55,722 bases of DNA. Source: a virus. Its lineage: Duplodnaviria > Caudoviricetes. A model generated the notes under the pieces. That model did no database searches and had not been told where the DNA came from. It worked only from the letters and a program-made list of their open reading frames with translations. Positions 297 through 55,722 of the stretch are shown one piece after another (the first letter of the stretch is position 1; each line of letters begins with the position of its first letter). The stretch spans positions 1 to 55,722 of the IMG/VR virus record IMGVR_UViG_3300042923_000857; one strand, written 5' to 3'. A program made the translations under genes and the position numbers.

Positions 297-524
297 ATGC
301 CACTTTCCGTTGGGAAGTGTCAGCTGCAAGGAATCCGCAAATCCAATGGGTGGACTCAAGATGAGCTATGTATTGAATTAAAACGAAAGCTCGGTATTGA
401 GTTAACCCCTCAAATGATTTCCCATTACGAGACGAACAAGAAGACGATGTCTCTTCTTAATCTGATGGCGATGTCGGAATTGTTTGAACGGAGCATGGAT
501 GACTTCTACCTAAGAAAGCGGTAG
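297..524 (+). CDS. XRE-family HTH regulator
   Basis: GGAGG RBS; HTH_3 pattern IRKSNGWTQDEL...ISHYETNKKTMSL. Confidence 0.85.
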   Translation: MPLSVGKCQLQGIRKSNGWTQDELCIELKRKLGIELTPQMISHYETNKKTMSLLNLMAMSELFERSMDDFYLRKR

Positions 525-740: not shown

Positions 741-771
741 AAAAAAGAAAAAAACTGCCATTTGGCAGTTT
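741..771 (-). terminator. Intrinsic terminator ending the agr-like operon
   Basis: Minus strand AAACTGCC-aaat-GGCAGTTT followed by a T run, just after the LytTR stop. Confidence 0.75.
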
Positions 772-785
772 ATAGTTCACAATGT

Positions 786-1166
786 TTAGTTTATAACGAT
801 CACTCGGTTTTCTTCGCGGGCCTTCGACACTACTTTCTTGTAGTACTTCTGAGCTAAGGTAATTTTTTTTGAATTTTTTTCGACTTCATATTCGAAGTAC
901 GCAATGGTATAAATACTGTCCAACCTCTTGATTTTCGGCATATGGACTACAATATTTCGATCAACTTTCTCGAAATCATATCCAGCCGCCTTGAGAGCTT
1001 CCACCCAGTAAGACAAGGAGCCCCCGATATAAAATCGATCCTCCAGCGTGTGAACGAAGACTCGTTTCTCATCAAACTCCAGAAAAAGGACATCCGAAGC
1101 ACCTACGTTCAAAGCCCCTTTTTTTCCTTCTTCATCTTTGGAGACGGACAATTGTAGTGGTAACAT
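786..1166 (-). CDS. Stand-alone LytTR DNA-binding domain protein (no receiver domain)
   Basis: LytTR pattern DVLFLEFDEKRVFVHT...FEKVDRNIVVHMPKIKRLD; GGAGGG RBS before ATG 1166. Confidence 0.85.
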   Translation of the reverse strand: MLPLQLSVSKDEEGKKGALNVGASDVLFLEFDEKRVFVHTLEDRFYIGGSLSYWVEALKAAGYDFEKVDRNIVVHMPKIKRLDSIYTIAYFEYEVEKNSKKITLAQKYYKKVVSKAREENRVIVIN

Positions 1167-1187
1167 ACCGATTCCCTCCATTGTTTT

Positions 1188-1313
1188 CTATTTCAACAAT
1201 TCTGCAGGAGTCTCATCTTGATGAATGTAAAGCCAGCTAGCCGTTGTTGTTGCGATTATTACCGCAATGAATCCTAACAATGTAGCGAGTTTATAGAACG
1301 CACGTTTTTTCAT
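1188..1313 (-). CDS. agrD: AgrD-type cyclic lactone autoinducer propeptide, 41 aa: MKKRAFYKLATLLGFIAVIIATTTASWLYIHQDETPAELLK
   Basis: Translated by hand (absent from the ORF track). ATG overlaps the agrB stop (ATGA) and has an AGGAGGTG RBS. Amphipathic leader followed by TAS-WLYI-HQxExPxxL, the AgrD layout. Confidence 0.9.
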   Translation of the reverse strand: MKKRAFYKLATLLGFIAVIIATTTASWLYIHQDETPAELLK

Positions 1314-1828
1314 GTACTATCACCTCCTCTCCGGATTAACGTTGCACTCTGCACTAAGAATGCAATCGCCAATACCGGTGAGTCAAACAAGAAGTTGCTT
1401 GAGATGATGATGATCGTAATTAATTTAAGTACTGGATATCGTTTTTTCGGAATGCGTGATTCTAATTTTGAAGGAGCAAAAGCTAAAGCGAGGCATGCAG
1501 AAAGGCAATTCATAACATCAATCGTAGTTTGTCCGAAATCCGCAAAAGAGAAGCTAGTTAATCCTAAAGTGGATACCACTACACAAAGCGTACCCGACTT
1601 TAAGTGGAACCCACCTGAGAACTGTCTAAGGAGAGCGTATGATACAAGTGCGATGACAATTTCCGTTGTGCGGCCTGTAAAAGCGGAGATGATTAGCGAT
1701 ATTCCGATGATGAACCCGGTGTTAAGTAAAAATGAAATAGCATGCTTTAATACTGCAACACTACGCGGGTGGTCGGGATTGACAGATTTAATGCCTCTTG
1801 CGAGCTTCCACGCTAGTGAATCAATCAA
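1310..1828 (-). CDS. agrB: AgrB-family membrane peptidase/cyclase
   Basis: Signature LRQFSGGFHLKSGTLC (catalytic His and Cys), FAP motif, several TM helices, directly upstream of agrD. Confidence 0.92.
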   Translation of the reverse strand: MIDSLAWKLARGIKSVNPDHPRSVAVLKHAISFLLNTGFIIGISLIISAFTGRTTEIVIALVSYALLRQFSGGFHLKSGTLCVVVSTLGLTSFSFADFGQTTIDVMNCLSACLALAFAPSKLESRIPKKRYPVLKLITIIIISSNFLFDSPVLAIAFLVQSATLIRRGGDST

Positions 1829-2457
1829 TCTGCAGCATCCTCCTTCTTAAAGGAATAACGGAGGAATACCAGGAGAGCTAGAACGAATACAAGCAAGTTA
1901 AGGAAAACTTCTCTGAAATACATCATTGCTGCTAGAGCAACTATGAAAACAATAATGGACGAAATTACCGCGACTCGTTCCCATGAGAATTTTACGTTCT
2001 CAATAAAGTCGAACGTAAATCCATAGCCGAATCTATACAGAGTCCAACCGATCGAGAAGCCGACAACTCCCGTAAGAACTTGCACTGAGTATGCTTTCCA
2101 TAAAAACTCCTGCACTATATCTAACGAAAAGTATCCATCAGACAAATACAATATCCCATTCTGTATGATGCCAAGTCCCACATAACCAGCAACAGACATA
2201 AAGAACGATCCGATCAGCGGTATTCTAACGAAGATCATTAAGAAGAGTACGATTATCAGCAGGTTTATGATTGGCGCTATAAACGACAAAGATAGTTCTT
2301 CCCTAATTAAAAAATTCTGAAAATTGATGATGATAATCACGATTAAGGTGGACCATTTATAACGCATCAAGTCGTACCTAAAGATATAAAACAATATCGA
2401 AAACACGGCGATCCCTTCAAATATCGAGAAAAACATAAACCCAAGAAATTCACTCAT
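1825..2457 (-). CDS. Polytopic membrane protein (about 6-7 TM) resembling an AgrC-type sensor domain without a kinase
   Basis: Hydrophobic over all 210 aa; translationally coupled to agrB; no H-box or ATPase domain. Confidence 0.7.
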   Translation of the reverse strand: MSEFLGFMFFSIFEGIAVFSILFYIFRYDLMRYKWSTLIVIIIINFQNFLIREELSLSFIAPIINLLIIVLFLMIFVRIPLIGSFFMSVAGYVGLGIIQNGILYLSDGYFSLDIVQEFLWKAYSVQVLTGVVGFSIGWTLYRFGYGFTFDFIENVKFSWERVAVISSIIVFIVALAAMMYFREVFLNLLVFVLALLVFLRYSFKKEDAAD

Positions 2458-2498
2458 GCCGGTGGGCTCCCCAAGTCAAGATAACTGCTAAGTAAGGT

Positions 2499-2807
2499 TT
2501 AATCACTCTTTACTCTTTTGCGCTGTTCCCGCCATTCGTCGATCTTATCGATATATTCTTCTATGTCATCTTCAAGCCAGAAGGGGAATTTACCTGCATG
2601 GAGCATGGGTTCAGGGAAAAACTCTGTCTTTCGCTTATGAATCATATTTCTCGGATCGATCCCAAGCATGATCGCGACTTCTTGATTTCCTATTAGCTTA
2701 ATCCCTTTGGTGCGTCCCTCGTATTTTTTGATCAACTCGTGAATAAGACGTCCGTCTTCCCCGCCGATCCGGTCAGCGAGTTCACGATATTTTTGAAGCT
2801 GATCCAA
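2499..2807 (-). CDS. AlpA/excisionase-like DNA-binding protein
   Basis: LIGNQEVAIMLGI...FPEPM...PFWLEDDIEEY is an AlpA-like winged-helix pattern; TTG start with AAGGGGG RBS. Confidence 0.65.
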   Translation of the reverse strand: MDQLQKYRELADRIGGEDGRLIHELIKKYEGRTKGIKLIGNQEVAIMLGIDPRNMIHKRKTEFFPEPMLHAGKFPFWLEDDIEEYIDKIDEWREQRKRVKSD

Positions 2808-2831
2808 TTATTACACCCCCTTACAAGAATC

Positions 2832-2860
2832 ATTGTATGTCAAAGTCTTATGTATGTCAA
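2832..2860 (-). promoter_or_regulatory. SigA promoter of the agr-like operon, overlapped by a 10-bp direct repeat
   Basis: TTGACA-17-TACAAT; TTGACATACA occurs at 2860-2851 and 2843-2834. Confidence 0.8.
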
Positions 2861-2895
2861 CATCATATATAAGGGAAACTCATATATTCTCAAAT

Positions 2896-2924
2896 AAAAA
2901 AAGCCGCGAAATTACTCCGCGACT
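2896..2924 (-). terminator. Intrinsic terminator ending the ATPase module
   Basis: AGTCGCG...CGCGGCT followed by a T run. Confidence 0.7.
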
Positions 2925-3082
2925 CTCTTTAGACCAACAATAGTCTTGATCCGGTACATCAGCGTCCGCACTTTCTTTCGAAATGGTTTCCGTCGCTCGA
3001 ACTTAAACACGACTTCTACCTTTCCGTTTTTGCTGACAACATACGGTTCGCCATTACGCACACCGATCACAACTCTTTTCAA
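2912..3082 (-). CDS. Small basic hypothetical protein (56 aa, MKRVVIGVRNGEPYVVSK...)
   Basis: Hand-translated; TTG start with GAGGTGAGG RBS; followed by a terminator. Confidence 0.6.
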   Translation of the reverse strand: MKRVVIGVRNGEPYVVSKNGKVEVVFKFERRKPFRKKVRTLMYRIKTIVGLKRVAE

Positions 3083-3145: not shown

Positions 3146-5602
3146 TTATTTGTTTGATCTACGTTTCTTAATGTCGGCCAGTACTTCGGCTATGGGACGT
3201 CCATACTGCCTCGCATGGCGCTTGGTTAGGAAAGAGTTATCAATAGTGTCGTATCGGTTACCAATCAACGGGAGAGCGTCACAAACGAACGGAGCCTCGT
3301 ATTCTCCCTCGTGCAGCCAGCAAGCAATGTACTGATACTGCTTTGTTGCATCAAAAGCCTGCTGAGGTTCGGTAAATGTCTTACCCAGGTACGGCATTAA
3401 CTTTTTGTATGTGTCTACGTGCGTATTTTTGAACAAGTGCCAATTGATCGAAGCTGAAAGAAGGGTATCTGTGAACCCGGGGTATTCACTAAATGCGCTG
3501 AAATCGTGGAAGACAATCACCGGCGCCAGCCGATACTTCGGCCCTTCTCTTAGCATCCGCTTTGTAAAGTGTACGAGGCCCTTCGATAGGAATTGATGCG
3601 GTTCGTTTAGGACAAGGAACGTTCCCGAGCCTTTACCATCCTGCGCGAGCTTGATCAAAAATGTGAGCATGGCGATCCAATAACCAAGCGTCTCTTTAAT
3701 ACGCTCCGGCATAGGTATCCCATCGGGCATCCGGCAGCGAATGATAACTACCTTTCCTTCCTGTAACCAACGATACAGATCCATCTCAGGGTTAAAGCTC
3801 TGACAAAACATCGGCTTTAGAAACTCGCTGCCTACGATCTGGTTGAGCCTGCGGAGCACTGGTCCGTATATTTGCCCTTGCTTCCCCTCGCTCATCTTAT
3901 CGAAGTCTCGCCAAGTATCCATGTCGAAGACACTATCGAGTTCGGATATCTTCTTTTTCCTGAATGATGGCGAGAGGAACATTTCTTTCATGTCGGTAAA
4001 ATCTCCGTTCGTTGCTTTGGCAGCTTCCCGGGCAAAGTCTGCCGTCTGGAACTTATCCTCGTCGCCGTCCGAAAGTAGAAAGTCGGTTAGATACTCCGCG
4101 ATGACATCGGCAGCCACCCGAGTATCTTTCACATTTTGGAATATAGACTGCAGACCTAGATAAGGTGCATACGCAGTGTCGGCAAGGTTTATATCGATCA
4201 CGTCTTCAGGCGGAAGATGATCTCTTATCGCATCGGCCATGCCGCGGTGACCGTTACGCTCGTCTATGAAGTCTGGGATAACAGCTCCGATGCCGTGCTT
4301 GCGCTTAGCCTCAACAACCATGTTAATGACCGCTTGATCTTTCCCCATACGTGGGCTCCCGTTGACTCCTCGAGCCATATATAGCTTATCCGGACGATTC
4401 GTAGGGATGTGGATATCATAGGTCGCTCCCCGATCGGTAGCCGTCCCGGCCAGAATGCCCTTATCATTCAAAAATACTTTGGGTAACTCGATCTCTACTC
4501 GCCGATTAGATTGGAGTGCATTGGCGAACTCCAATTGCAATTCGGACGTTGGGAGCTGCTGGAGCTTGCCGAGTTCGTCGACGCTCATGATGTTTGGCGT
4601 CATTTCATTCATGCGCCAATTGCTCAAGTCGTTTAATGCTTCCTTGGATCGCAGATTGACCTTTACCATCTCCAAGCGGTTATCGTGGTACTTTCCTTTT
4701 TCAGTGACGACCCCGTACGCACCGGCAACAGATCGAGCAAGCATTTCCCTTTTGACCGGATCGACCGAGAAAACTGTATATCGAATCGACGTTTTGAACA
4801 CCGGGAGATTCCGCTTGTTTTTACTCAGCGGGGATAAATCACCGCTAACCAGCAATTCAGACCGATCGGGATTAATATGCTTTGGCCGCTCTACCTTTTG
4901 CCGTTGCCCTCCATTGTTGTGAAAGAATGACCGTTCGAGTCCGACTAGAACATCGTCGACCAATGACTTAGCTTCAAAGAATAGATGAGTTACCCCGTTC
5001 GCGACATGGCGCAGGATCCTAAGTGGATCGAATCCAGCACGGTACGGCACGCCCCCCTTATCCCATTGTTCCCAAGCATAATCGGCTAGCTTCTTCCACT
5101 TCCCCCGCGGTACCGTCTCTGTCTTAATGAAAATAGAAACTGCTTCATCTTCCGATAACTCATTCGTGACCCCGAGCACGCTCCGGACCGGAATCGTTTG
5201 TTCCGAGTGGTCGGCATCGAGAGAGAACATATCATGTCGCTTATATTTGAGAGCATAAAGCTCCGTCTGCTCACCAGTCGGGAAGTCGAACGTATCGGCA
5301 ACTTCGAGAGTCGACTTCCTCCATTGGTCATGGTTTCTAAACTTGATCCGGAACGCGTCCGCAAACTCTGCTGGCATAGCACAATAATACTCGATAGTCT
5401 GAGAGGTAAGCTTTGTTATCCACCAGAAATCCGGGGCGGCCTTAACAATGATCTTAAATCCTTCCCTTCTTGGTTTATGACGGACCGAGAATAATTCATA
5501 AAGCGCTCGCTGAAAGTTTCGGGAGGACGAATTAAGGACGGTGTGATGCGGGATTATTCGGAATACGACATAGGACGGCTTAAGACGTTCAATGAAATGC
5601 AC
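3146..5602 (-). CDS. Large FtsK/HerA-superfamily (VirB4/VirD4-like) P-loop ATPase
   Basis: Walker A-like GSPRMGKD, Walker B-like FLVLNEPH, REGPKY motif; GTG start with GGGAGG RBS. Confidence 0.75.
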   Translation of the reverse strand: MHFIERLKPSYVVFRIIPHHTVLNSSSRNFQRALYELFSVRHKPRREGFKIIVKAAPDFWWITKLTSQTIEYYCAMPAEFADAFRIKFRNHDQWRKSTLEVADTFDFPTGEQTELYALKYKRHDMFSLDADHSEQTIPVRSVLGVTNELSEDEAVSIFIKTETVPRGKWKKLADYAWEQWDKGGVPYRAGFDPLRILRHVANGVTHLFFEAKSLVDDVLVGLERSFFHNNGGQRQKVERPKHINPDRSELLVSGDLSPLSKNKRNLPVFKTSIRYTVFSVDPVKREMLARSVAGAYGVVTEKGKYHDNRLEMVKVNLRSKEALNDLSNWRMNEMTPNIMSVDELGKLQQLPTSELQLEFANALQSNRRVEIELPKVFLNDKGILAGTATDRGATYDIHIPTNRPDKLYMARGVNGSPRMGKDQAVINMVVEAKRKHGIGAVIPDFIDERNGHRGMADAIRDHLPPEDVIDINLADTAYAPYLGLQSIFQNVKDTRVAADVIAEYLTDFLLSDGDEDKFQTADFAREAAKATNGDFTDMKEMFLSPSFRKKKISELDSVFDMDTWRDFDKMSEGKQGQIYGPVLRRLNQIVGSEFLKPMFCQSFNPEMDLYRWLQEGKVVIIRCRMPDGIPMPERIKETLGYWIAMLTFLIKLAQDGKGSGTFLVLNEPHQFLSKGLVHFTKRMLREGPKYRLAPVIVFHDFSAFSEYPGFTDTLLSASINWHLFKNTHVDTYKKLMPYLGKTFTEPQQAFDATKQYQYIACWLHEGEYEAPFVCDALPLIGNRYDTIDNSFLTKRHARQYGRPIAEVLADIKKRRSNK

Positions 5603-5754: not shown

Positions 5755-6429
5755 TCAAGTTATCATCCGCCAAATCACGCCGCCCCAGAGGACGATAAAG
5801 AGGCGTCCGATCCACTTACTGCCGCTTCCCATAATCGGACCTACCATCATCCCGACTGCGCACGCGCAGACGCCTAAAGTAATAATCTCCGCAGAACACA
5901 GACTCACTAGTTCAAAGGTGTGTTTAGTTGTAGCCATAAAAACATTCCCAGCGGGTTTCACAATGAGCTCCGCTTCTTTACCAACAAACCAATCGGCAAA
6001 CCCGTTCGCCTTATCCATGACTCCGCCCCAGAATCCGGGGTCTGATGCTGCTTGAGCTATTGGGGTCGGATCAACCAATGCGCCATTATCTGTGATTACC
6101 TGCAGGTGTAAGTGTGGTCCGGTAGAATGACCAGTGTTCCCACTCAAGCCGATGATGTCGCCGGCATGAACATGATCACCCACTTTTACGTTCATCTTGG
6201 ACATATGGCCGTAGACAACATCTGGACCGTCGTCGAGATCGAGCCTGACCATTCTACCGATCGGTCTATCCCCGGTGATATCGACCTTCGAAATGATTCC
6301 GTCAGCAACGGCATGCAGTTCCGTTCCTTCGGGCATTGCGATATCCACACCCGAGTGAGGGATTTTGTGGACAGAATCTATTGATCCAAATTCGGAAGAG
6401 ATGGGGAATCCATTAATACGTAGCTGCAT
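5755..6429 (-). CDS. M23-family metallopeptidase with C-terminal TM helices
   Basis: HSGVD (HxxxD), YGHM and TGPHLH (HxH) motifs; ATG 6429 after GAGGTGGGG. Confidence 0.88.
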   Translation of the reverse strand: MQLRINGFPISSEFGSIDSVHKIPHSGVDIAMPEGTELHAVADGIISKVDITGDRPIGRMVRLDLDDGPDVVYGHMSKMNVKVGDHVHAGDIIGLSGNTGHSTGPHLHLQVITDNGALVDPTPIAQAASDPGFWGGVMDKANGFADWFVGKEAELIVKPAGNVFMATTKHTFELVSLCSAEIITLGVCACAVGMMVGPIMGSGSKWIGRLFIVLWGGVIWRMIT

Positions 6430-6440
6430 GCCCCCACCTC

Positions 6441-6794
6441 CTACAATGTTTTCAGCCAGTTTCGAATATCCAGAGCGTGCCGAATGATGAGATATCCTGA
6501 TGCGCCACCCATTAAGAATTCCAGCGCCTTTGTTCGATTGCCGAACATCCAGGTCACGCCGGCATAAACAATAATCCCCGCACATAGCCAATCCGATATT
6601 TCGAGTACGGTATTAAATATCTCGAGCCATGATGATTCGGAAGCCGGGACAGCGGCGAATACTTCTTTCGGAAATAGAATGAGGTGTACTGTTGCAGCTG
6701 TCTTCCTTGCGATGTTTAGTTTGCGATGCCGATCCAGCGGGACGATGTGGCCGACCATAAACTCATTCCAGTTTAAGGTCACCGATTTTCCCAT
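6441..6794 (-). CDS. TrbC/VirB2 pilin-like membrane protein
   Basis: Leader ending VFAA, then two hydrophobic helices separated by GNRTKA, as in VirB2/TrbC pilins. Confidence 0.55.
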   Translation of the reverse strand: MGKSVTLNWNEFMVGHIVPLDRHRKLNIARKTAATVHLILFPKEVFAAVPASESSWLEIFNTVLEISDWLCAGIIVYAGVTWMFGNRTKALEFLMGGASGYLIIRHALDIRNWLKTL

Positions 6795-7698: not shown

Positions 7699-7776
7699 GA
7701 TATGCTATATTAGGATTACCAGAATTTCAGCAAATACCCCAGCCGATGGGGATCATATTAAATGGGGAAATTACAA

Positions 7777-8457
7777 ATGAAAAGAAAGATTGTCTTATCG
7801 CTGATCATTGTTTTAGTACTAATCTCATCCGTTTCTTTCGGAGCTTTCGCTGCAACAAAAATGAAGGTGATTGTAAACGGAAAAACATCCACAGTTGATC
7901 CGATTGTTATCAAAGGAGTGACCTATGTTCCACTTAGAGCTGCAGCCGACATGCTAGGAGCAAAGGTTAATTTTGACGCTTCCACTAACACTGTTAGAAT
8001 TACAGGTTCGGGCTCTGAAACATCAAGCAGCCCGGCATCAAAACCAAAGTCCTACAATGTCGACGTAACAGTCAATAGCGGACCAATGATTCTAAAAATA
8101 TCAAAGGTTACGTTAGACCCTGCTTACAAGCAGTACTCTTTTGAATCTGCGAGCCACAATGCTTTAGTCTTTGATGTCACTGTAGAAAATACCTCTACGG
8201 ATAAATTGACTTGGTATGTAGATCAAACTCAGCTAGTTTTGAACACGAAGGAGCAAATCGAGAGTGGATTAATGACAGAGGATCGAATTTCTTCCGATTT
8301 CAATGGGAAGGTAATAAAAAAGGGGCAAATTGCGTATGAGGTTAAAAACAGTACGCTCGAGGAAGTTAAAAATATAAGGTTGCTCATTAAATATGTGATA
8401 GACGCGAACTTCGATACTGTTGCGGAAGACACAGAAACAGAAATCACCCTAGAATAA
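7777..8457 (+). CDS. Secreted/surface protein: signal peptide, copper amine oxidase N-terminal (stalk) domain, Ig-like domain (moron)
   Basis: MKRK plus hydrophobic signal ending AFA; IKGVTYVPLRAAADMLGAKVNFD motif; FDVTVENTS beta-sandwich; opposite strand to the late genes. Confidence 0.75.
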   Translation: MKRKIVLSLIIVLVLISSVSFGAFAATKMKVIVNGKTSTVDPIVIKGVTYVPLRAAADMLGAKVNFDASTNTVRITGSGSETSSSPASKPKSYNVDVTVNSGPMILKISKVTLDPAYKQYSFESASHNALVFDVTVENTSTDKLTWYVDQTQLVLNTKEQIESGLMTEDRISSDFNGKVIKKGQIAYEVKNSTLEEVKNIRLLIKYVIDANFDTVAEDTETEITLE

Positions 8458-8502: not shown

Positions 8503-10068
8503 TTAATCCTTATCGATAAACACAGTATTACTATCCTTATCCCATTTAACTTTTGCCCCTAAAGCTTCGGCGACCGCTCGAGCTGGTGTAAAGGTTACGC
8601 CATTCTCTACATATCCACTCGGTACCTTTACTCCATTCACAATGACATTTATCTCCACTTTCACTTCCTCTTCCTCCTTCCCGTTCCAGAACAACCCTTC
8701 TGCATAAGCTTCGTTGAAGTCGACATCAACTCCGCCTAAAGATGTGCTGTTCTTGTACTGCCACATGTCCGCATGCTGGCTTTTCTTTCCGTCGCTCCAA
8801 GCGTAGGTCTGCCAATAATATTGACAAGCATCGCGGTTAGCCATTTCCTCGATCACTTCATAATGGCCGTAAACGCCGACTTGATATCCTTGGAGCTCCG
8901 CTTGTGCCGCCCTCAAATAAGTCTCGATTGCATCGTAGTCCTTTGCTTGTACGTCGTAATCAACGGCCATGAAGATCGCGGATCCCGTTGGTTGGGCGAT
9001 TGCTTTAGCTTCGGCAAGTGCCGCTTTGCCGTCGACTTTACCGTTTGCAGCACCGCCAGCCGGGCGATTGGTGGTAAGCTGAAACACAGATGCTAGGCGC
9101 AAACCAGCATCTTCGATCGCAACTACTTCTTTCCGGGTTAGCCGTTTCCAAGCATAAGTTTCCGGTACCAGATACCGAACGGCGAACTTGGCGCCTTTCT
9201 CTGCTACCGCCTTTGCCGTTGCTGCCGTTAAAGGCTTCGCGCAATCGATTCCGAATAAAGCCTTTTTAACCGGAAATAGAACGGCGGGATCGAACTTAAT
9301 TGCAATTCCATGATGGATGTTACGTTGGACTTGCTTTTCACTCATATCGGCGACGTGGTAATCACGCTTGATATCCAGTGCATCGAGTAGCTGTTGGTTA
9401 TTCGTTGCGAGTGTAGCCGATCCGCCCCCGTCTCCACTAGCTGAGTTAACATATCCGAAATGTTCCGCCGCGACGCCCGACTCCAGCGCACTAAGACCGC
9501 GATCGGTTTCGCCTCTGCCGTCGACAAGAAGAATGCCTAACGTGCCGTCCGCGTTCGTGCCGAACACAATGCGAGATTGGACGGCGGCGACATCCGCAGG
9601 CGTCTTTTCCTGAGTCCGTAGCGCACTTAAGGCTTTTCCACCTTCGGTTATAGTCGGGACAACAACGACGCCCCAATCCAGCCCCTCCGGGCTCTCTTGC
9701 CGACCAATCCCGAAGCGTCCGTCTTTCCGGTAAAAATGCGGACGCTGTTCCGTTTTTCCCGCTACATCCGAAAAGATGATTTTACCCATTTGAAACGTCT
9801 TTCCCAGCAACGAACCGTTTGCTTCATTGAAAAATGGGGCATTCACGACAATCCAGTTACCGCCATGTTTTTTCACGAGGTCGGCCAATATCGCGGAAGC
9901 AGCTTTGCCTTTCGCAATTACGAGCTCCGTCTGAATGACAGCTGCAGGCGGGATATCTAGGACCCGGATATCTGTCCACCCATTTGCCTTAGAAAAAGAA
10001 CCGCTATAGTCCAGCGGCCCCTCTTCAAGCTTATTGGCTTTTACTCGAACGCGAGTATGTTTAATCAT
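8503..10068 (-). CDS. Endolysin: phosphodiester-glycosidase (NAGPA-like) domain, DUF1906 glycoside hydrolase, copper amine oxidase N-terminal binding domain
   Basis: LLVDGRG...GDGGGS; GIDC...AVRYL...AVDYD...WQTYAWS; ENGVTFTPARAVAEALGAKVKWD; follows the holins. Confidence 0.8.
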   Translation of the reverse strand: MIKHTRVRVKANKLEEGPLDYSGSFSKANGWTDIRVLDIPPAAVIQTELVIAKGKAASAILADLVKKHGGNWIVVNAPFFNEANGSLLGKTFQMGKIIFSDVAGKTEQRPHFYRKDGRFGIGRQESPEGLDWGVVVVPTITEGGKALSALRTQEKTPADVAAVQSRIVFGTNADGTLGILLVDGRGETDRGLSALESGVAAEHFGYVNSASGDGGGSATLATNNQQLLDALDIKRDYHVADMSEKQVQRNIHHGIAIKFDPAVLFPVKKALFGIDCAKPLTAATAKAVAEKGAKFAVRYLVPETYAWKRLTRKEVVAIEDAGLRLASVFQLTTNRPAGGAANGKVDGKAALAEAKAIAQPTGSAIFMAVDYDVQAKDYDAIETYLRAAQAELQGYQVGVYGHYEVIEEMANRDACQYYWQTYAWSDGKKSQHADMWQYKNSTSLGGVDVDFNEAYAEGLFWNGKEEEEVKVEINVIVNGVKVPSGYVENGVTFTPARAVAEALGAKVKWDKDSNTVFIDKD

Positions 10069-32699: not shown

Positions 32700-33389
32700 T
32701 TAAGAGGAAGTGTTTTCGGCTGGCGCTTCTTCCTTAGGCAACTCCATTCGGATCTCGAAATCGATCCCCTCGCCTTGTAGTTTGTAACGGTGAATGTTGG
32801 TTCTTGAAGGATACGTGCTCACTTCCTTTTTTTGAAGCCAGTCCGTGCCGGTTGCCACGTCCCCTAGAACTTCGGTAGCGACTTCTGGTGTTACATGCGG
32901 ATTCTTTGATGTCGAGAATATACTCCAGCTTGCCTCTACCCACGCTTCGATAACCACATTTGCATCGACCCCGTATAATTCCCGTGACAACGAACATAAC
33001 CGATGTACTGCCCAAGCCGACTTTGACATTGATTTTGGTGGGGACTTCAAAAGCTTACGTTTCTTTCCTGCTCGCACCCCTTCCCTTTTGAAAATTGTCA
33101 CATCGAGGTCTTTATCCAGACCTCCGCCATTCGCGCAGAAGAAAGTCAACTTATCATCACTATCGGCTGTATGCCATTCGTTTGTCCAAGACGCTCCACC
33201 GTCCTCTGCTATGTCAGCCACAACCAACCGGGCAAGGTATGTTGTTGAAGTCCACCCATGGATGTTTACCTTTATGTCCACATCTAGACCGTGTTCATCT
33301 TTCATTACCTTTCTTAGGGCGATCACTGCCCCGGCGATTGTCCGGACGGACGGAACTGGTATCGGCTTAGCTTTTCGCTTGGCTGTCAT
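32700..33389 (-). CDS. Hypothetical protein (two similar halves)
   Basis: Coupled to the acyltransferase; AAGGAGG RBS. Confidence 0.65.
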   Translation of the reverse strand: MTAKRKAKPIPVPSVRTIAGAVIALRKVMKDEHGLDVDIKVNIHGWTSTTYLARLVVADIAEDGGASWTNEWHTADSDDKLTFFCANGGGLDKDLDVTIFKREGVRAGKKRKLLKSPPKSMSKSAWAVHRLCSLSRELYGVDANVVIEAWVEASWSIFSTSKNPHVTPEVATEVLGDVATGTDWLQKKEVSTYPSRTNIHRYKLQGEGIDFEIRMELPKEEAPAENTSS

Positions 33390-34486
33390 TTAATCATTCC
33401 TCCTTTTAATAATGCTTTGTAGTTATCGCCTACGAATGCACCAGGCTCCTTGTACGATCTCGTGGTCCGGATGCCACCAACGAGATACTTACCAAGCGGA
33501 TGCTTATTGACGATGTGAACTGTAACGATCGATGCGATAACCGACGATATGAAAAGCATTGCGACCCCGTAGCCTCCGAGATAAATTCCCACAACGCCGA
33601 GAGCTTTGTTCGTTGCTCGCATGAAGAAGAAATGAAGCAGGTAGATCCCGAACGAATACTTGCTAACGAACCCTAATATGGCGGGTTGTCGCTTGAGCCG
33701 TGTGAAGGCGAGGAATAGGGCTAGGATCATCGTGACCGTGAATACCACCATATCCATACGCTTTGAGCCGTAGGGCATGACGTCGAACGTGTTGACGTAC
33801 AACACGATTCCAAGTGCGATAACTGGAGTTGTCAAAACGATAACCGGATGCGCCTTTAGCATCTGAATGAATCGTTGATAGTTCTTCCCGCAGTAATACG
33901 CCAGTGCGAAATAGAATAACCAGCCGATACAAGGAACCCAATACCCGCCTTCCCATAGATATACAACCGAATCGTTAGGCGGTGAGCTGAGATTAAAGAA
34001 AGCCAGATACGCCAAGTTTATGATGAACGAGCCGGTTAATATGATCGGAGCGGATACCTTGCTAAGATACTTGATGAATAAGCGATGGAGAATATAGAAC
34101 TGGAGAATGACGAGAATGAACCATGGACCATGGATGCTGCCGAGTAGGTTGTATGTAAAATCTTTGAGCAGAAGCGGTATGTTGTTGTAATTGGGGACGA
34201 ACGAATTGAAAAAGGAAATGAACACGAACGGCAGGAGGATCGGCAGCACTCGCTTCTTAAAGAAGGAGCCCGGTAATCGGTCTGGATAGCTTCGAGACAA
34301 TATTAGTTCAGAGATGAAGACGAATGTCGGTGTACCGAAGGCGAGGATTCCGACGATGGTGAGTGCCATTTGATTTGTTGTGTCATAGAAATCGTTAGCG
34401 TAAAGAATGGAATGCAGGAGAACCACACATAAGCATGCAATTGACCTTATTGAATTGATTTCTTTAATAACCACTTTGTCCGCCAT
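33386..34486 (-). CDS. Acyltransferase-3 family (IcaC/YfiQ-like) membrane O-acyltransferase
   Basis: IRSIACLCVVLLH, FGTPTFVFIS, WFILVILQFY, YSFGIYLLH; about 10 TM. Confidence 0.88.
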   Translation of the reverse strand: MADKVVIKEINSIRSIACLCVVLLHSILYANDFYDTTNQMALTIVGILAFGTPTFVFISELILSRSYPDRLPGSFFKKRVLPILLPFVFISFFNSFVPNYNNIPLLLKDFTYNLLGSIHGPWFILVILQFYILHRLFIKYLSKVSAPIILTGSFIINLAYLAFFNLSSPPNDSVVYLWEGGYWVPCIGWLFYFALAYYCGKNYQRFIQMLKAHPVIVLTTPVIALGIVLYVNTFDVMPYGSKRMDMVVFTVTMILALFLAFTRLKRQPAILGFVSKYSFGIYLLHFFFMRATNKALGVVGIYLGGYGVAMLFISSVIASIVTVHIVNKHPLGKYLVGGIRTTRSYKEPGAFVGDNYKALLKGGMIK

Positions 34487-34554
34487 GAGAAACACACAAC
34501 TCCTTTTAATATAAAAATGAATCACAGCAAGGGTTTAACCTTTGTGTGATTCAA

Positions 34555-34592: not shown

Positions 34593-34616
34593 AAAAAAGG
34601 CGCTCAATGAGCACCT
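34593..34616 (-). terminator. Terminator after the recombinase
   Basis: AGGTGCTC-att-GAGCGCCT followed by a T run. Confidence 0.7.
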
Positions 34617-36210
34617 AAAGGTACGTATCTACTACTACCTCGCCGTACTTATCAACTTCGATCCGCTTCACGCAAAGCATAAGCAGTGGACGAGTTTTCT
34701 CAACATCTGAATATGATGGTAACGCCGTGAGGCCGTCAGCAGATATTTTCGCGTCTCTGACGACTCGGGAAACATCTAACACCCTACGCTCATCAGTGGC
34801 GATCTGTGCTAGCTTTTTGTCCGCCTCTGTTATCTCCATCTCGTATTGTTCTTTTTCGAATTCGTACTGAGCGCCATCAAGATCGCCAAGCATGTTTTGA
34901 CGACGAATTTCGAAAAGCAACTTCCGGTTGTCCTCGATGCGTTTTTCGAGCTTACGCCTATCTTTCTCGTAGTTTCCGCCCGGCATCCTGAATTCCATAT
35001 CTCTGGAACCTCTTTCGAACTCCTTGACCCCTATTCTTACTTGGCGTAAGATTCCATCGATCAGCTCGTCCCGCATTTCAGCATAAGGAATCCATTTGTC
35101 ATTCGAGCATCCGGCCTCTCCAGCTCTCCGTCGACGACTACACATCAAGTAACGATACTCTTTACCAAGACGGTTCTTTGTCTTACTTGCCATAGTTACA
35201 ATGGCAGAACCACATTCCTTACAAAAAATCATCTTAGCAAACACGTTGACGTACGCTCGTCTACCACCTCTTCTTCCTCCGCCGCGCTCCATTCTTATAT
35301 CTTGAGCAATTTCCCATCGCTCAAGCGGGATGACGACCGGGAACCAAACCTTCTCAGACCATTCCCATTTTTCTCTAGGCTGCTTAACGAGTTTTTTTCG
35401 CCTCTTCATCAAATCGGTAAGATCATCGTACATCAATTCAGTTTTGTATCTGCCGTGGACGTTGTAACCAGTATAAATAGGATTTTCAAGTATCGCCTGC
35501 ACAGCGGTTATTGTCCATACCCCGCCTTTATATGCTGGATACTTGATCCCTTCCGGATTGTCGCCGTTCAAATAGTTTACGATCAGCTTATCGCCAAACC
35601 CGTAATCGATTTTTAGGCTAAATATCAATTCGACTAACTCCGCTTTTCCCTTGATTCGTTCAAGTGATTTTCGTTTTCCGCTTTCTTGTAGCGGATCGTC
35701 TACCAGTATCTTGCTAAGACCGAATGGTGGTATGGTTCCGATGTAGTTACCGAATTTTAAAGAAGAAGTTCTGATGCCGCGACTGGAAGATCCGCTTATG
35801 TCCGAACTTGTATTTTGGTTAATGACCGACTTAATTCCGAATAGCAATTCGTCATCCTTCTTGGCCGAGTCGTATCCGTCTTCAATTGAGACCACTCGAA
35901 TCTTAAGTGCATTAACAAGGATTCTTTTCAGTGTAATCGCATCTAGTGCATCCCGGCTAAAACGGGAAAGAGAGGCGAACCATATTGAACGGACCTCGCC
36001 TCTCTTTGCGTCATCTATCATGCGCTTTACGTCTGTACGTTCAACGATTGTTGTTGCTGAATCCTTATCGTGATAAAAGTCATCTGTTCCAAGTTGTATG
36101 CCTTCACGAGCAGCTGTTTCATGTATGAATGACTCCTGATGCTCTGGACTGTCCCTCTGCGAATCTTGGTTAGTTGAAACCCGGACGTAACCTTTATCCT
36201 TTTGTATCAT
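34615..36210 (-). CDS. Large serine recombinase (integrase)
   Basis: GYVRVST..Q (catalytic Ser), SRFSR, ILENPIYTG, CKECG...YLMC zinc ribbon, coiled coil. Confidence 0.93.
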   Translation of the reverse strand: MIQKDKGYVRVSTNQDSQRDSPEHQESFIHETAAREGIQLGTDDFYHDKDSATTIVERTDVKRMIDDAKRGEVRSIWFASLSRFSRDALDAITLKRILVNALKIRVVSIEDGYDSAKKDDELLFGIKSVINQNTSSDISGSSSRGIRTSSLKFGNYIGTIPPFGLSKILVDDPLQESGKRKSLERIKGKAELVELIFSLKIDYGFGDKLIVNYLNGDNPEGIKYPAYKGGVWTITAVQAILENPIYTGYNVHGRYKTELMYDDLTDLMKRRKKLVKQPREKWEWSEKVWFPVVIPLERWEIAQDIRMERGGGRRGGRRAYVNVFAKMIFCKECGSAIVTMASKTKNRLGKEYRYLMCSRRRRAGEAGCSNDKWIPYAEMRDELIDGILRQVRIGVKEFERGSRDMEFRMPGGNYEKDRRKLEKRIEDNRKLLFEIRRQNMLGDLDGAQYEFEKEQYEMEITEADKKLAQIATDERRVLDVSRVVRDAKISADGLTALPSYSDVEKTRPLLMLCVKRIEVDKYGEVVVDTYL

Positions 36211-54957: not shown

Positions 54958-54972
54958 CCTTAGATTCTAAGT
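54958..54972. promoter_or_regulatory. Operator copy 3
   Basis: CCTTAGATTCTAAGT matches the operator palindrome. Confidence 0.7.
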
Positions 54973-55179
54973 GTTACTGGGTAAAAAAAATTCCATCGGC
55001 TCTCCTAGAGCCTTAGCTATTGCCGCGAACTCCTCTGGCAAAACCTTAGCCCTCCCTCCAAGAATCGCATAAAAACGTGTTGCTTCAATGCCACAATCTT
55101 CAGCTACCTTGTTGAATTTCAAGTCATTGGTGAGAATATGAAGCCGGATCTTCTGTACAACAGGATTCCTTTTGTTCAC
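54967..55179 (-). CDS. Cro-like HTH protein
   Basis: Divergent from the repressor; KVAEDCGIEATRFYAILGG HTH. Confidence 0.8.
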   Translation of the reverse strand: MNKRNPVVQKIRLHILTNDLKFNKVAEDCGIEATRFYAILGGRAKVLPEEFAAIAKALGEPMEFFLPSNT

Positions 55180-55274: not shown

Positions 55275-55368
55275 CAACTTTATTTATTTTTGAGATTTTT
55301 TTTGTAAATTACATAATATTCTTGTTTTCAATAATCTATGGTATCATCAGAAATTGGAGGGGATCTCA

Positions 55369-55722
55369 ATGAGTATCTTGTCAGAGAGGTTAAAAGAGGC
55401 GAGAAAAAGAAAAGGGAAACTGGATGGTAGGAAACTTACTCAAATCATGGTACAAGACGCAACAGGAGTACACAGTAGTACTTTGGGTGGATATGAAAAT
55501 TCAGTGAGTGAGCCCGATTCCGAAACCCTTCTCACTTTGGCTAATTACTATGGGGTCACAACAGATTGGTTGCTCGGGAATACCAGCAATCCGGCCGGTC
55601 ATTTAACTGAGGAGCAGTTAGAGGCGGTAAAGAAAGTAAATATGGACGACGATTCCTTTTTAGACGTTCCATTCATCTTTAATGGCCGTGAATTAACAAG
55701 GGAACAGAAAATTAAACTCCGA
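55369..55722 (+). CDS. cI-like XRE repressor (126 aa; continues across the join through 128-154)
   Basis: Hand-translated MSILSERLKEARK...LTQ...STLGGYEN...EPDSETLLTLANYYGVTTDWLLG; GGAGGGG RBS; stop at 152-154. Confidence 0.88.
   Translation, partial: MSILSERLKEARKRKGKLDGRKLTQIMVQDATGVHSSTLGGYENSVSEPDSETLLTLANYYGVTTDWLLGNTSNPAGHLTEEQLEAVKKVNMDDDSFLDVPFIFNGRELTREQKIKLR
55596..55722. repeat. Terminal direct repeat, right copy
   Basis: Identical to 1-127. Confidence 0.95.

Follow-up and report, generated by a model that had tools for sequence, protein, structure and literature searches.

How can an agr-type peptide signal be read by an operon that encodes no histidine kinase? The question is raised by five minus-strand genes that lie in a row at positions 786-2930 (upstream hairpin included) of IMGVR_UViG_3300042923_000857, a virus record whose whole length of 55,722 bases is called the window here. 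The gene order is small regulator, 210-aa membrane protein, agrB, agrD and a gene for a protein with a LytTR domain only. The initial annotation of this DNA had proposed a self-contained, phosphorylation-independent circuit in which the peptide acts through the membrane protein on the LytTR protein. Our analysis identifies the membrane protein, by remote sequence homology, as the sensor region of AgrC minus its kinase half, and the LytTR protein as AgrA minus its receiver domain. With this homology the unit reads AgrC-minus-kinase, AgrB, AgrD, AgrA-minus-receiver, and we regard a phosphorylation-independent agr circuit as its best explanation, a view held with slightly more conviction than doubt.

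The open reading frames, the promoter at 2860-2832 and the hairpin at 771-752 agreed with the annotated picture of five co-oriented genes bracketed by one promoter and one terminator. Profile searches for AgrB, AgrD and LytTR, which had been suggested as a check, matched in all three cases (PF04647, TIGR04223 and PF04397). Pfam found LytTR alone in the 131-aa protein, as annotated for a regulator without a receiver domain, and its LytTR-only homologues are 117-137 aa long. Across all 55,722 bases of the record, PF02518 (HATPase_c) and PF14501 (HATPase_c_5) matched nothing at E <= 1, which upholds the statement that the phage genome contains no histidine kinase.

The peptide-producing half of the operon was assessed by alignment. 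The RxxSGGxH...C motif of AgrB is intact, and the residues R68, S71, G72, G73, H75 and C82 were invariant in 37 of 37 aligned homologues. The 41-aa AgrD was confirmed by a TIGR04223 match above the cut-off (Table 1); it lacks Cys and has a conserved Ser at the ring position instead. Across about 40 homologues, this Ser precedes by five residues a conserved tail that contains Pro and acidic residues; Trp usually occupies the second ring position, the third is variable, and the last two are hydrophobic or aromatic. The ring, whose position we presume from analogy with known AgrD peptides, would comprise AgrD residues 26-30, followed by the acidic tail with its conserved Pro. Since it has no Cys but a conserved Ser, AgrD is predicted to give a five-residue Ser-lactone ring, not a thiolactone, and from the cyclic (thio)lactone originally annotated only the lactone is retained. 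Ring sequences vary between loci. The ring of the window is identical in a chromosomal locus (L038) and a viral contig (L021), and also in L042 as read by eye, and several other loci differ from it by one residue; cross-talk is therefore possible.

To place the membrane protein, we combined structure prediction with profile comparison. The AF2 model (148-row alignment; pLDDT 87.8) contains seven long and two short helices, in line with the 6-7 transmembrane segments annotated. Lys plus Arg averaged 10.5 in loops 1, 3, 5 and the C-terminal tail versus 2.45 in the other loops, and this bias points to an N-out/C-in topology. The protein matched phrog_15604 (2.7e-7), had no family in Pfam or NCBIfam (DUF2154 included), gave nothing at E <= 0.001 in a Foldseek search of its model against the PDB, and found only unnamed Bacillota clusters in the ESM Atlas. 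Family members were 88-242 aa long in the best 150 of 389 representatives, and a search for longer, fused relatives made with the 148-row alignment found none, an absence that counts for little.

When the family profile was searched across the phylum, 42 of 301 genomes contained a match; among the 52 matches listed, 15 lay in frames of 445-496 aa. Ten loci with such long frames were fetched: a kinase C-terminal half was present in 10/10, AgrB was adjacent in 9/10 by HMM, and three contained a LytTR frame of 236-251 aa. Pfam assigned SPOB_a, HATPase_c and HATPase_c_5 to three of the long-frame kinases, with an adjacent AgrB at 2.4e-29, and Response_reg plus LytTR to two of the regulators at kinase loci. 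When the family profile (148 sequences) was aligned by hhalign with the first 215 residues of 11 AgrC-type kinases, the match reached a probability of 97.9% (E 4e-13) over 150 columns and covered residues 1-147 of the window protein; against another set of transmembrane sensor domains, those of the kinases adjacent to paralogous units in Cohnella, the probability was 1%, which serves as a negative control. The phylum-wide search and the AgrC match overturned a contrary view, drawn from that 1%, that the membrane protein is not AgrC-like.

The inner half of the membrane protein is more conserved than the outer half, with near-invariant G146 and F147 in cytoplasmic loop 5 and conserved K205 and E206 in the tail. 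The window protein contains no His. Its public gene call is a separate matter: it is 137 aa long, begins at residue 74 of the 210-aa frame and omits the first three helices, those with the AgrC-like motif. Split AgrC forms were also seen in other Bacillota (L112, 472-1834; L114, 1471-2852), with a sensor-like protein of 156-158 aa followed by a kinase part of 300-304 aa with SPOB_a and HATPase domains as the next gene, and then, in L112, by AgrB.

The distribution of the unit was surveyed in cellular genomes, cultured phages and viral contigs. One-genome-per-species collections yielded 15 loci, all with membrane protein, AgrB and LytTR in the same order; AgrD was found at 14 by tblastn. Homologues of this phage's genes flanked both sides in four of the 15 (L007, L008, L013 and L018), L009 had only a homologue of the 102-aa regulator, and the remaining ten had no phage-gene homologues in their flanks. 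Where Pfam names them, the flanking genes scanned at these ten loci and at L009 are ordinary cellular genes (glutamate dehydrogenase, short-chain dehydrogenase, AraC and RpiR regulators, NUDIX, FAA hydrolase, DNA ligase); one locus also has an IS66 transposase, and a different one a helicase/PLD protein. By profile, 190 of the 301 genomes sampled from the host family contained the membrane-protein family (about 329 matches, 1-7 per genome). At the 30 best loci AgrB came next in 30, with AgrD in 28 and LytTR in 26; at 20 more divergent loci all three larger genes were present in 20/20, with LytTR frames of 113-183 aa. Pooled over these 50 genome loci, AgrB follows the membrane protein in 50 and a LytTR-only gene is present in 46.

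Among viral sequences, 21 IMG/VR contigs carried a related AgrB, together with the membrane protein in 20, LytTR in 16 and the 75-aa HTH gene in seven; several of these contigs are prophage predictions with the unit at the contig end, and not all need be viral. AgrB homologues were also present in four cultured phages, Abouo and Davies of Brevibacillus laterosporus and Harrison and Paisley of Paenibacillus larvae. Abouo and Harrison share the order membrane protein, AgrB, small peptide and a LytTR protein of 118-122 aa, their membrane proteins (gp44 and gp38) fall in the same PHROG as that of the window, and the unit adjoins the integrase in both. A tblastn search with the window membrane protein found no match in phages, and BLASTP of the window against Abouo proteins was not significant. 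The unit is thus a standard module of Paenibacillaceae, mainly chromosomal and recurrently picked up by phages, and it is not a phage invention. A mainly chromosomal cassette is one half of an outcome that the initial annotation had named as speaking against its reading.

Incomplete variants were noted at two loci. L021 (6001-7139) carries a 66-aa HTH gene, the membrane protein, a 50-aa AgrD with the window's ring and LytTR, with no AgrB, and L110 (G018:C1) has membrane protein and LytTR without detectable AgrB. The LytTR proteins of Abouo (gp47; L002 4651-5019) and Harrison (gp41; L003 4648-5004) are annotated as 'peptidase' and are actually LytTR proteins (PF04397, 9.7e-7 and 1.2e-6, respectively); phrog_15081 bears the same label, which looks like a propagated misannotation.

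Kinases were sought around these loci. No kinase lay within the 1.5-kb flanks of any of the 30 best loci, none of the 21 viral contigs had one, and a kinase followed LytTR in two of the 20 more divergent loci. Five Cohnella genomes gave 14 AgrB matches; a membrane-protein match stood immediately upstream in 12 of the 12 loci retrieved, and AgrC-like kinases were adjacent at three of the 14. A unit that works with a separate kinase, the other half of the outcome named against the annotated reading, is hence not the general case (3/14, 0/30, 2/20 and 0/21). In the adjacent Cohnella kinases the sensor domain is complete and bears no relation to the family (hhalign probability 1%); the presence of such kinases implies that a second type of receptor can coexist with the unit. 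In three host-family genomes, 8 of 8 LytTR matches lay in frames of 121-140 aa with no AgrA-type regulator, in a six-frame search that was not exhaustive and missed at least the G001 prophage copy.

The three Cohnella loci with kinases (L035 in G001:C36, L036 in G004:C26 and L037 in G005:C40) are paralogous units beside two, three and one divergent AgrC-like kinases of about 450 aa, respectively, and no receiver-domain regulator was found within any of them. To one side of these loci a secreted protein of about 515 aa is conserved, and to the other a gene of about 260-280 aa. Between species their LytTR proteins are 69-73% identical, and the membrane protein and AgrB only 33-39%.

To assess the relation between peptide and membrane protein, we ran the co-variation check that had been suggested. 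In partial Mantel tests on 23 cassettes, membrane-protein identity tracked AgrD ring identity with AgrB and LytTR controlled (r 0.28, p 0.005), and neither AgrB (0.05, p 0.33) nor LytTR (-0.10, p 0.85) was related to the ring. The relation was carried by the predicted outer half (r 0.39, 0/3000 permutations; 0.385, p 0.0003, with the inner half controlled), and none was found for the predicted inner half (0.09, p 0.23); these tests are exploratory, use related sequences and depend on one topology model (AF2 helices plus Lys/Arg bias). The complex of membrane protein and LytTR protein, likewise suggested for prediction, scored 0.57 (three runs, 0.56-0.59) versus 0.00 for the best control. The runs agreed in at least 94% of contacts, with partner pLDDT of at least 80. 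Of 80 solved complexes 58 passed the mark for this score, as did 2 of 110 mismatched pairs; scores up to 0.60 included only seven of the 80 solved complexes and both passing mismatches, so that a pass in this range is usually false except where the guess was likely beforehand. The prediction thus lends weak support to membrane protein-LytTR binding. Taken together, the co-variation, the conserved cytoplasmic face and the complex score fit an extracellular peptide sensor that handles LytTR inside the cell.

The circuit we propose would run as follows. AgrB, judged by its family, would cut the AgrD tail and close the five-residue lactone ring on the conserved Ser, and the cyclic peptide would then be released from the cell, as members of the family lead one to expect. 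Outside, the ring may bind the outer face of the seven-helix membrane protein, as homology, co-variation and the weak docking result suggest. Cytoplasmic loop 5 and the C-terminal tail of the membrane protein would hold or release the LytTR protein, which would then alter transcription with no phosphotransfer involved. The conserved kinase-less architecture, the AgrC-sensor homology, the ring co-variation and the weak complex score speak for the self-contained, phosphorylation-independent circuit first annotated, and the absence of the direct repeats known from streptococcal LytTR regulatory systems (LRS) speaks against it.

The lack of those repeats is one of several points that weigh against the circuit, besides the limits of the Mantel tests and of the complex score given above. 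According to the passages concerned in Zou et al. 2018 (PMC6193735) on the streptococcal systems HdrRM and BrsRM, LRS direct repeats are about 9 bp long, 11-13 bp apart and about 10 bp upstream of the operon -35. A scan for pairs of 9-mers with up to one mismatch and a start-to-start spacing of 19-23 found 0 pairs in the 200 bases that precede the operon of the window, and 33 of 41 loci likewise had none; the 32 intergenic segments of the phage contained four versus 2.0 expected, not above chance. LytTR sites, if strongly degenerate, might escape a scan of this kind. Homology to a sensor does not itself prove that peptide binding or LytTR contact has been kept, and the same four genes do stand beside one to three AgrC-like kinases in some chromosomal loci. 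The overlap of the membrane-protein gene with agrB, their constant adjacency and the outer-face co-variation would also fit a partner of AgrB in maturation or export.

One rival concerns the purpose of the phage copy; it is compatible with any of the three mechanisms considered here, and its probability does not add to theirs. It holds, at about even chances in our judgement, that the unit is accessory cargo expressed from the prophage, serving as an extra channel for the lysogen or mimicking or jamming chromosomal paralogues, and is not a counter for lysis and lysogeny. The phage switch is of the cI/cro type, and the annotated distance of less than 1 kb between the operon and the cI-like repressor on the circle proved correct, with 632 bases from the cI-like gene to the end of the LytTR gene and the 75-aa HTH_3 gene (297-524) in between. 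A place beside cI is the usual site of prophage-expressed accessory genes. The cargo view is further favoured by the operon's own promoter and terminators on both sides, by its recurrent place between lysis genes and repressor in related prophages and beside the integrase in Abouo and Harrison, by the mostly chromosomal occurrence of the unit, by the ring shared with one chromosomal unit and one viral contig, which makes cross-talk possible, and by the lack of LytTR-type repeats found near the phage switch. It has to reckon with the 75-aa HTH gene, homologues of which occupy the same place in L007, L008, L013 and L018: this gene and cI-type genes are conserved beside the unit in several diverged prophages, which could mean functional coupling, and degenerate LytTR sites might have escaped the scan. 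A role of the unit in the lysis-lysogeny choice of the phage, including the arbitrium-like counter of the initial annotation, is unsupported by any evidence found, the unit being mainly chromosomal and the scan having shown no LytTR-type direct repeats at the operon promoter and none above chance in the intergenic DNA. The most ambitious version, in which a kinase-less AgrC-derived receptor tethers and releases LytTR and Paenibacillaceae phages use their copy as a private lysogen-density channel into a cI-type switch, strikes us as a long shot.

As to mechanism, the stronger contender is that the membrane protein helps AgrB to mature or export the peptide, by leader removal or transport, that sensing is left to host kinases or another receptor, and that LytTR is an autoregulator or a competitor at LytTR sites; we consider this unlikely, though worth keeping in view. 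Judged by the ORF coordinates, start and stop codons overlap between the 210-aa gene and agrB as well as between agrB and agrD, and the first two are adjacent in 50 of 50 genome loci, which would fit such a partnership. A factor that handles the ring at the outer face during maturation or export would be expected to co-vary with it as well, and the AgrC-like kinases adjacent at some loci are possible receptors. There are parallels elsewhere: some AgrD types of S. aureus require a further membrane protease, MroQ, and the streptococcal repressor BlpS has LytTR alone. However, the membrane protein is homologous to AgrC sensor domains and not to a protease or transporter, belongs to no Pfam family, matches no PDB fold and, in the window, has no His. 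Nor is there a kinase near most loci or in the complete phage, the three host-family genomes showed no receiver-plus-LytTR regulator on which a kinase could act, and L021 retains the membrane protein without AgrB. The kinase-less receptor circuit remains our preferred explanation over this one.

The weakest mechanism, that the kinase-less sensor works in trans with a host kinase module so that signalling still proceeds by phosphorylation, can point to the split AgrC forms of other Bacillota (156-158 aa sensor-like protein, then 300-304 aa kinase part) and to the Cohnella genomes with AgrC-like kinases beside paralogous units, but is very improbable, given that the next gene is a kinase in the split forms and agrB here (50/50), with a receiver-less LytTR gene (46/50), that the adjacent Cohnella kinases have full, unrelated sensor domains (probability 1%), that three genomes showed no receiver-plus-LytTR regulator and, for the little it adds, that longer fused relatives were not found.

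Preferring, then, the phosphorylation-independent circuit, we turn to the phage around it (Table 1). The record, classed as 100% complete with direct terminal repeats, begins and ends with the same 127 bases (1-127 and 55596-55722) and can thus be read as a circle of 55,595 bases. The minus strand carries nearly all long ORFs; the integrase of the phage is of the serine type, and no tyrosine integrase was found. Insulated from its neighbours by hairpins on both sides, the operon is an accessory unit of the temperate phage and is transcribed independently. Promoter-like sites were not enriched in the whole region (seven found versus 9.1 expected). By eye, a 10-base word that begins at the -35 hexamer is repeated about 17 bases downstream.

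Table 1. Coordinates and evidence for the operon and other features of the phage; positions are those of the window.
Feature	Position	Strand	Evidence or reading
Virus record IMGVR_UViG_3300042923_000857	1-55,722		whole record = window; complete temperate phage
75-aa HTH_3 gene	297..524	+	PF01381 3e-8; convergent with operon
Terminator-like hairpin and T-run, operon end	752..771	-	terminator scan; -11.3 kcal/mol, z -2.95
LytTR-only DNA-binding protein, 131 aa	786..1181	-	PF04397 3e-8, residues 25-118
AgrD precursor, 41 aa	1188..1313	-	TIGR04223 5.8e-7, 29.5 bits versus cut-off 19
AgrB, peptidase/cyclase for AgrD, 172 aa	1310..1828	-	PF04647 5.3e-13; phrog_10353 1.7e-34
Membrane protein, 210 aa	1825..2457	-	AgrC sensor-domain homologue without kinase half; proposed peptide receptor
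102-aa regulator	2499..2807	-	probable MerR/excisionase-like winged helix, C-terminal two thirds
Predicted promoter, sigma-70 type, TTGACA-17-TACAAT	2832..2860	-	11/12 matches
Hairpin and U-run just upstream of promoter	2886..2930	-	-17.7 kcal/mol, z -4.85, 0/200 shuffles as good
Lysis-type genes	5755..6591 and 8503..10068		PHROGs profile search
Serine recombinase, large	34615..36210		Resolvase + Recombinase + Zn_ribbon_recom
70-aa ORF	55179..54967		divergent from cI-like gene
cI-like HTH_3 repressor gene	55354..55722, then over junction to 154	+	PF01381 7.3e-12

An 818-aa protein just upstream of the operon (3146-5602, minus strand) has no Pfam family and matches phrog_5156 (3.5e-161), of unknown function. 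In the prophage L007 of Cohnella yongneupensis KACC 11768 this neighbour is 83% identical and the local gene order is alike, so the host is probably Cohnella or a close relative. Two further genes are likely accessory: one for a secreted-type protein (7762-8457, plus strand) with Cu_amine_oxidN1 and a weak DUF4352 match, and one for an Acyl_transf_3 membrane acyltransferase (33386-34525, minus strand) adjoining the serine recombinase. The operon was present in one DNA run, from a soil metagenome that is possibly its source, and no RNA run was listed as containing it. DNA similarity to the phage collection was not detected for the first 6 kb by megablast or for the operon by blastn.

The first gene of the operon had been annotated as AlpA-like, which is plausible but not established. 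PHROGs gave weak matches of the 102-aa regulator to phrog_4745 ('DNA binding protein', 1.9e-5) and phrog_66 ('excisionase and transcriptional regulator', 1e-4), and its AF2 model (pLDDT 79.3) had RdfS, BldC, MtaN and the GIsul2 excisionase among its top Foldseek matches, all non-significant (E about 0.1, probability 0.85-0.98). These matches point to the MerR/excisionase type; on the other side, Pfam has no family for the protein or for nine of nine homologues, the PDB sequence search gave nothing below E 0.06, and Foldseek gave nothing at E <= 0.001. Homologues of the regulator precede the unit in 5 of 15 genome loci, 4 of 30 loci and 4 of 21 viral contigs. AT-rich imperfect palindromes were seen by eye over or beside the promoter in the regulator-bearing loci L007, L008, L009, L013, L018 and L020, as a pair with 22-base spacing in L020, and may be operators of this protein. 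L012, L015 and L021 have another HTH gene, of 60-66 aa, and another palindrome, also read by eye.

How does the unit relate to known systems? Like canonical agrBDCA, it has the catalytic His and Cys of AgrB, an AgrD with hydrophobic leader, five-residue ring position and acidic Pro tail, a multi-pass membrane protein homologous to the AgrC sensor, and a LytTR output domain. Unlike agrBDCA, it has no kinase half (DHp plus ATPase) on the sensor and no receiver on the LytTR protein, its order is sensor-B-D-LytTR, the ring nucleophile is Ser (predicted lactone) and not Cys, and an extra small regulator gene stands in front. It resembles arbitrium (AimP/AimR of SPbeta-like phages) in that a temperate phage encodes a secreted peptide near its lysogeny genes. 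The arbitrium peptide is linear, is taken up by Opp and meets a cytoplasmic TPR receptor, whereas here an AgrD-type, probably cyclic peptide is paired with a candidate receptor in the membrane.

Phage agr cassettes are a closer comparison. The relevant passages of Hargreaves et al. 2014 (PMC3901668) describe a cassette of agrD, agrB and agrC in phiCDHM1. They also note cassettes in Davies, Emery and Abouo, where AgrB and a putative AgrD are accompanied by membrane proteins that lack the ATPase domain and 'may be homologs of AgrC'. A kinase-less phage cassette as such is therefore already in print. The window phage shares with these a temperate lifestyle and the pair agrB and agrD, and Abouo and Davies carry homologues of its unit; by the same passages, phiCDHM1 differs in having a full AgrC kinase and no regulator, and they mention no LytTR-only gene, homology test or chromosomal survey. 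In the portions that concern us, AgrB appears in tables only in PMC4168068 and PMC5056774, PMC12180512 treats a different thiolactone autoinducing peptide of P. polymyxa with the word LytTR absent, and PMC11945551 covers phage agr genes in general terms only. A description of the membrane protein-AgrB-AgrD-LytTR-only unit was not found in the open-access literature, supplements aside. Within that literature, the LytTR-only partner, the profile-level homology to the AgrC sensor, the parallel loss of kinase and receiver, the chromosomal spread and the outer-face co-variation seem new.

The closest functional analogue is the streptococcal LRS, in which, according to the passages concerned in PMC6193735, one operon encodes a membrane protein and a soluble regulator with LytTR only, and phosphotransfer has no part in the signalling. 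Unlike in LRS as described there, the membrane protein comes first here, agrB and agrD stand between it and LytTR, it is AgrC-sensor-like and gave no DUF2154 match, and the defining direct repeats before the -35 were not found. The unit also encodes a peptide, and those passages mention no produced peptide ligand for HdrRM or BrsRM.

Many Bacillota have agrBD but no recognisable AgrC/AgrA pair that would sense the peptide. For one large family, this unit offers a testable answer to how sensing could work there, namely that the two phosphotransfer domains disappeared together while sensor and DNA-binding domain persisted. Two database names can be corrected as well, since Abouo gp47 and Harrison gp41, each labelled 'peptidase', are LytTR proteins. 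The unit is common (190/301 genomes, often several copies each) and occurs in the cultured temperate phages Abouo, Davies, Harrison and Paisley, which makes direct testing by genetics and synthetic peptides feasible. For phage biology it may, speculatively, represent a peptide channel other than arbitrium. Should the membrane protein indeed hold LytTR, the unit would link agr to the little-understood LRS and add a type of receptor for cyclic peptides.

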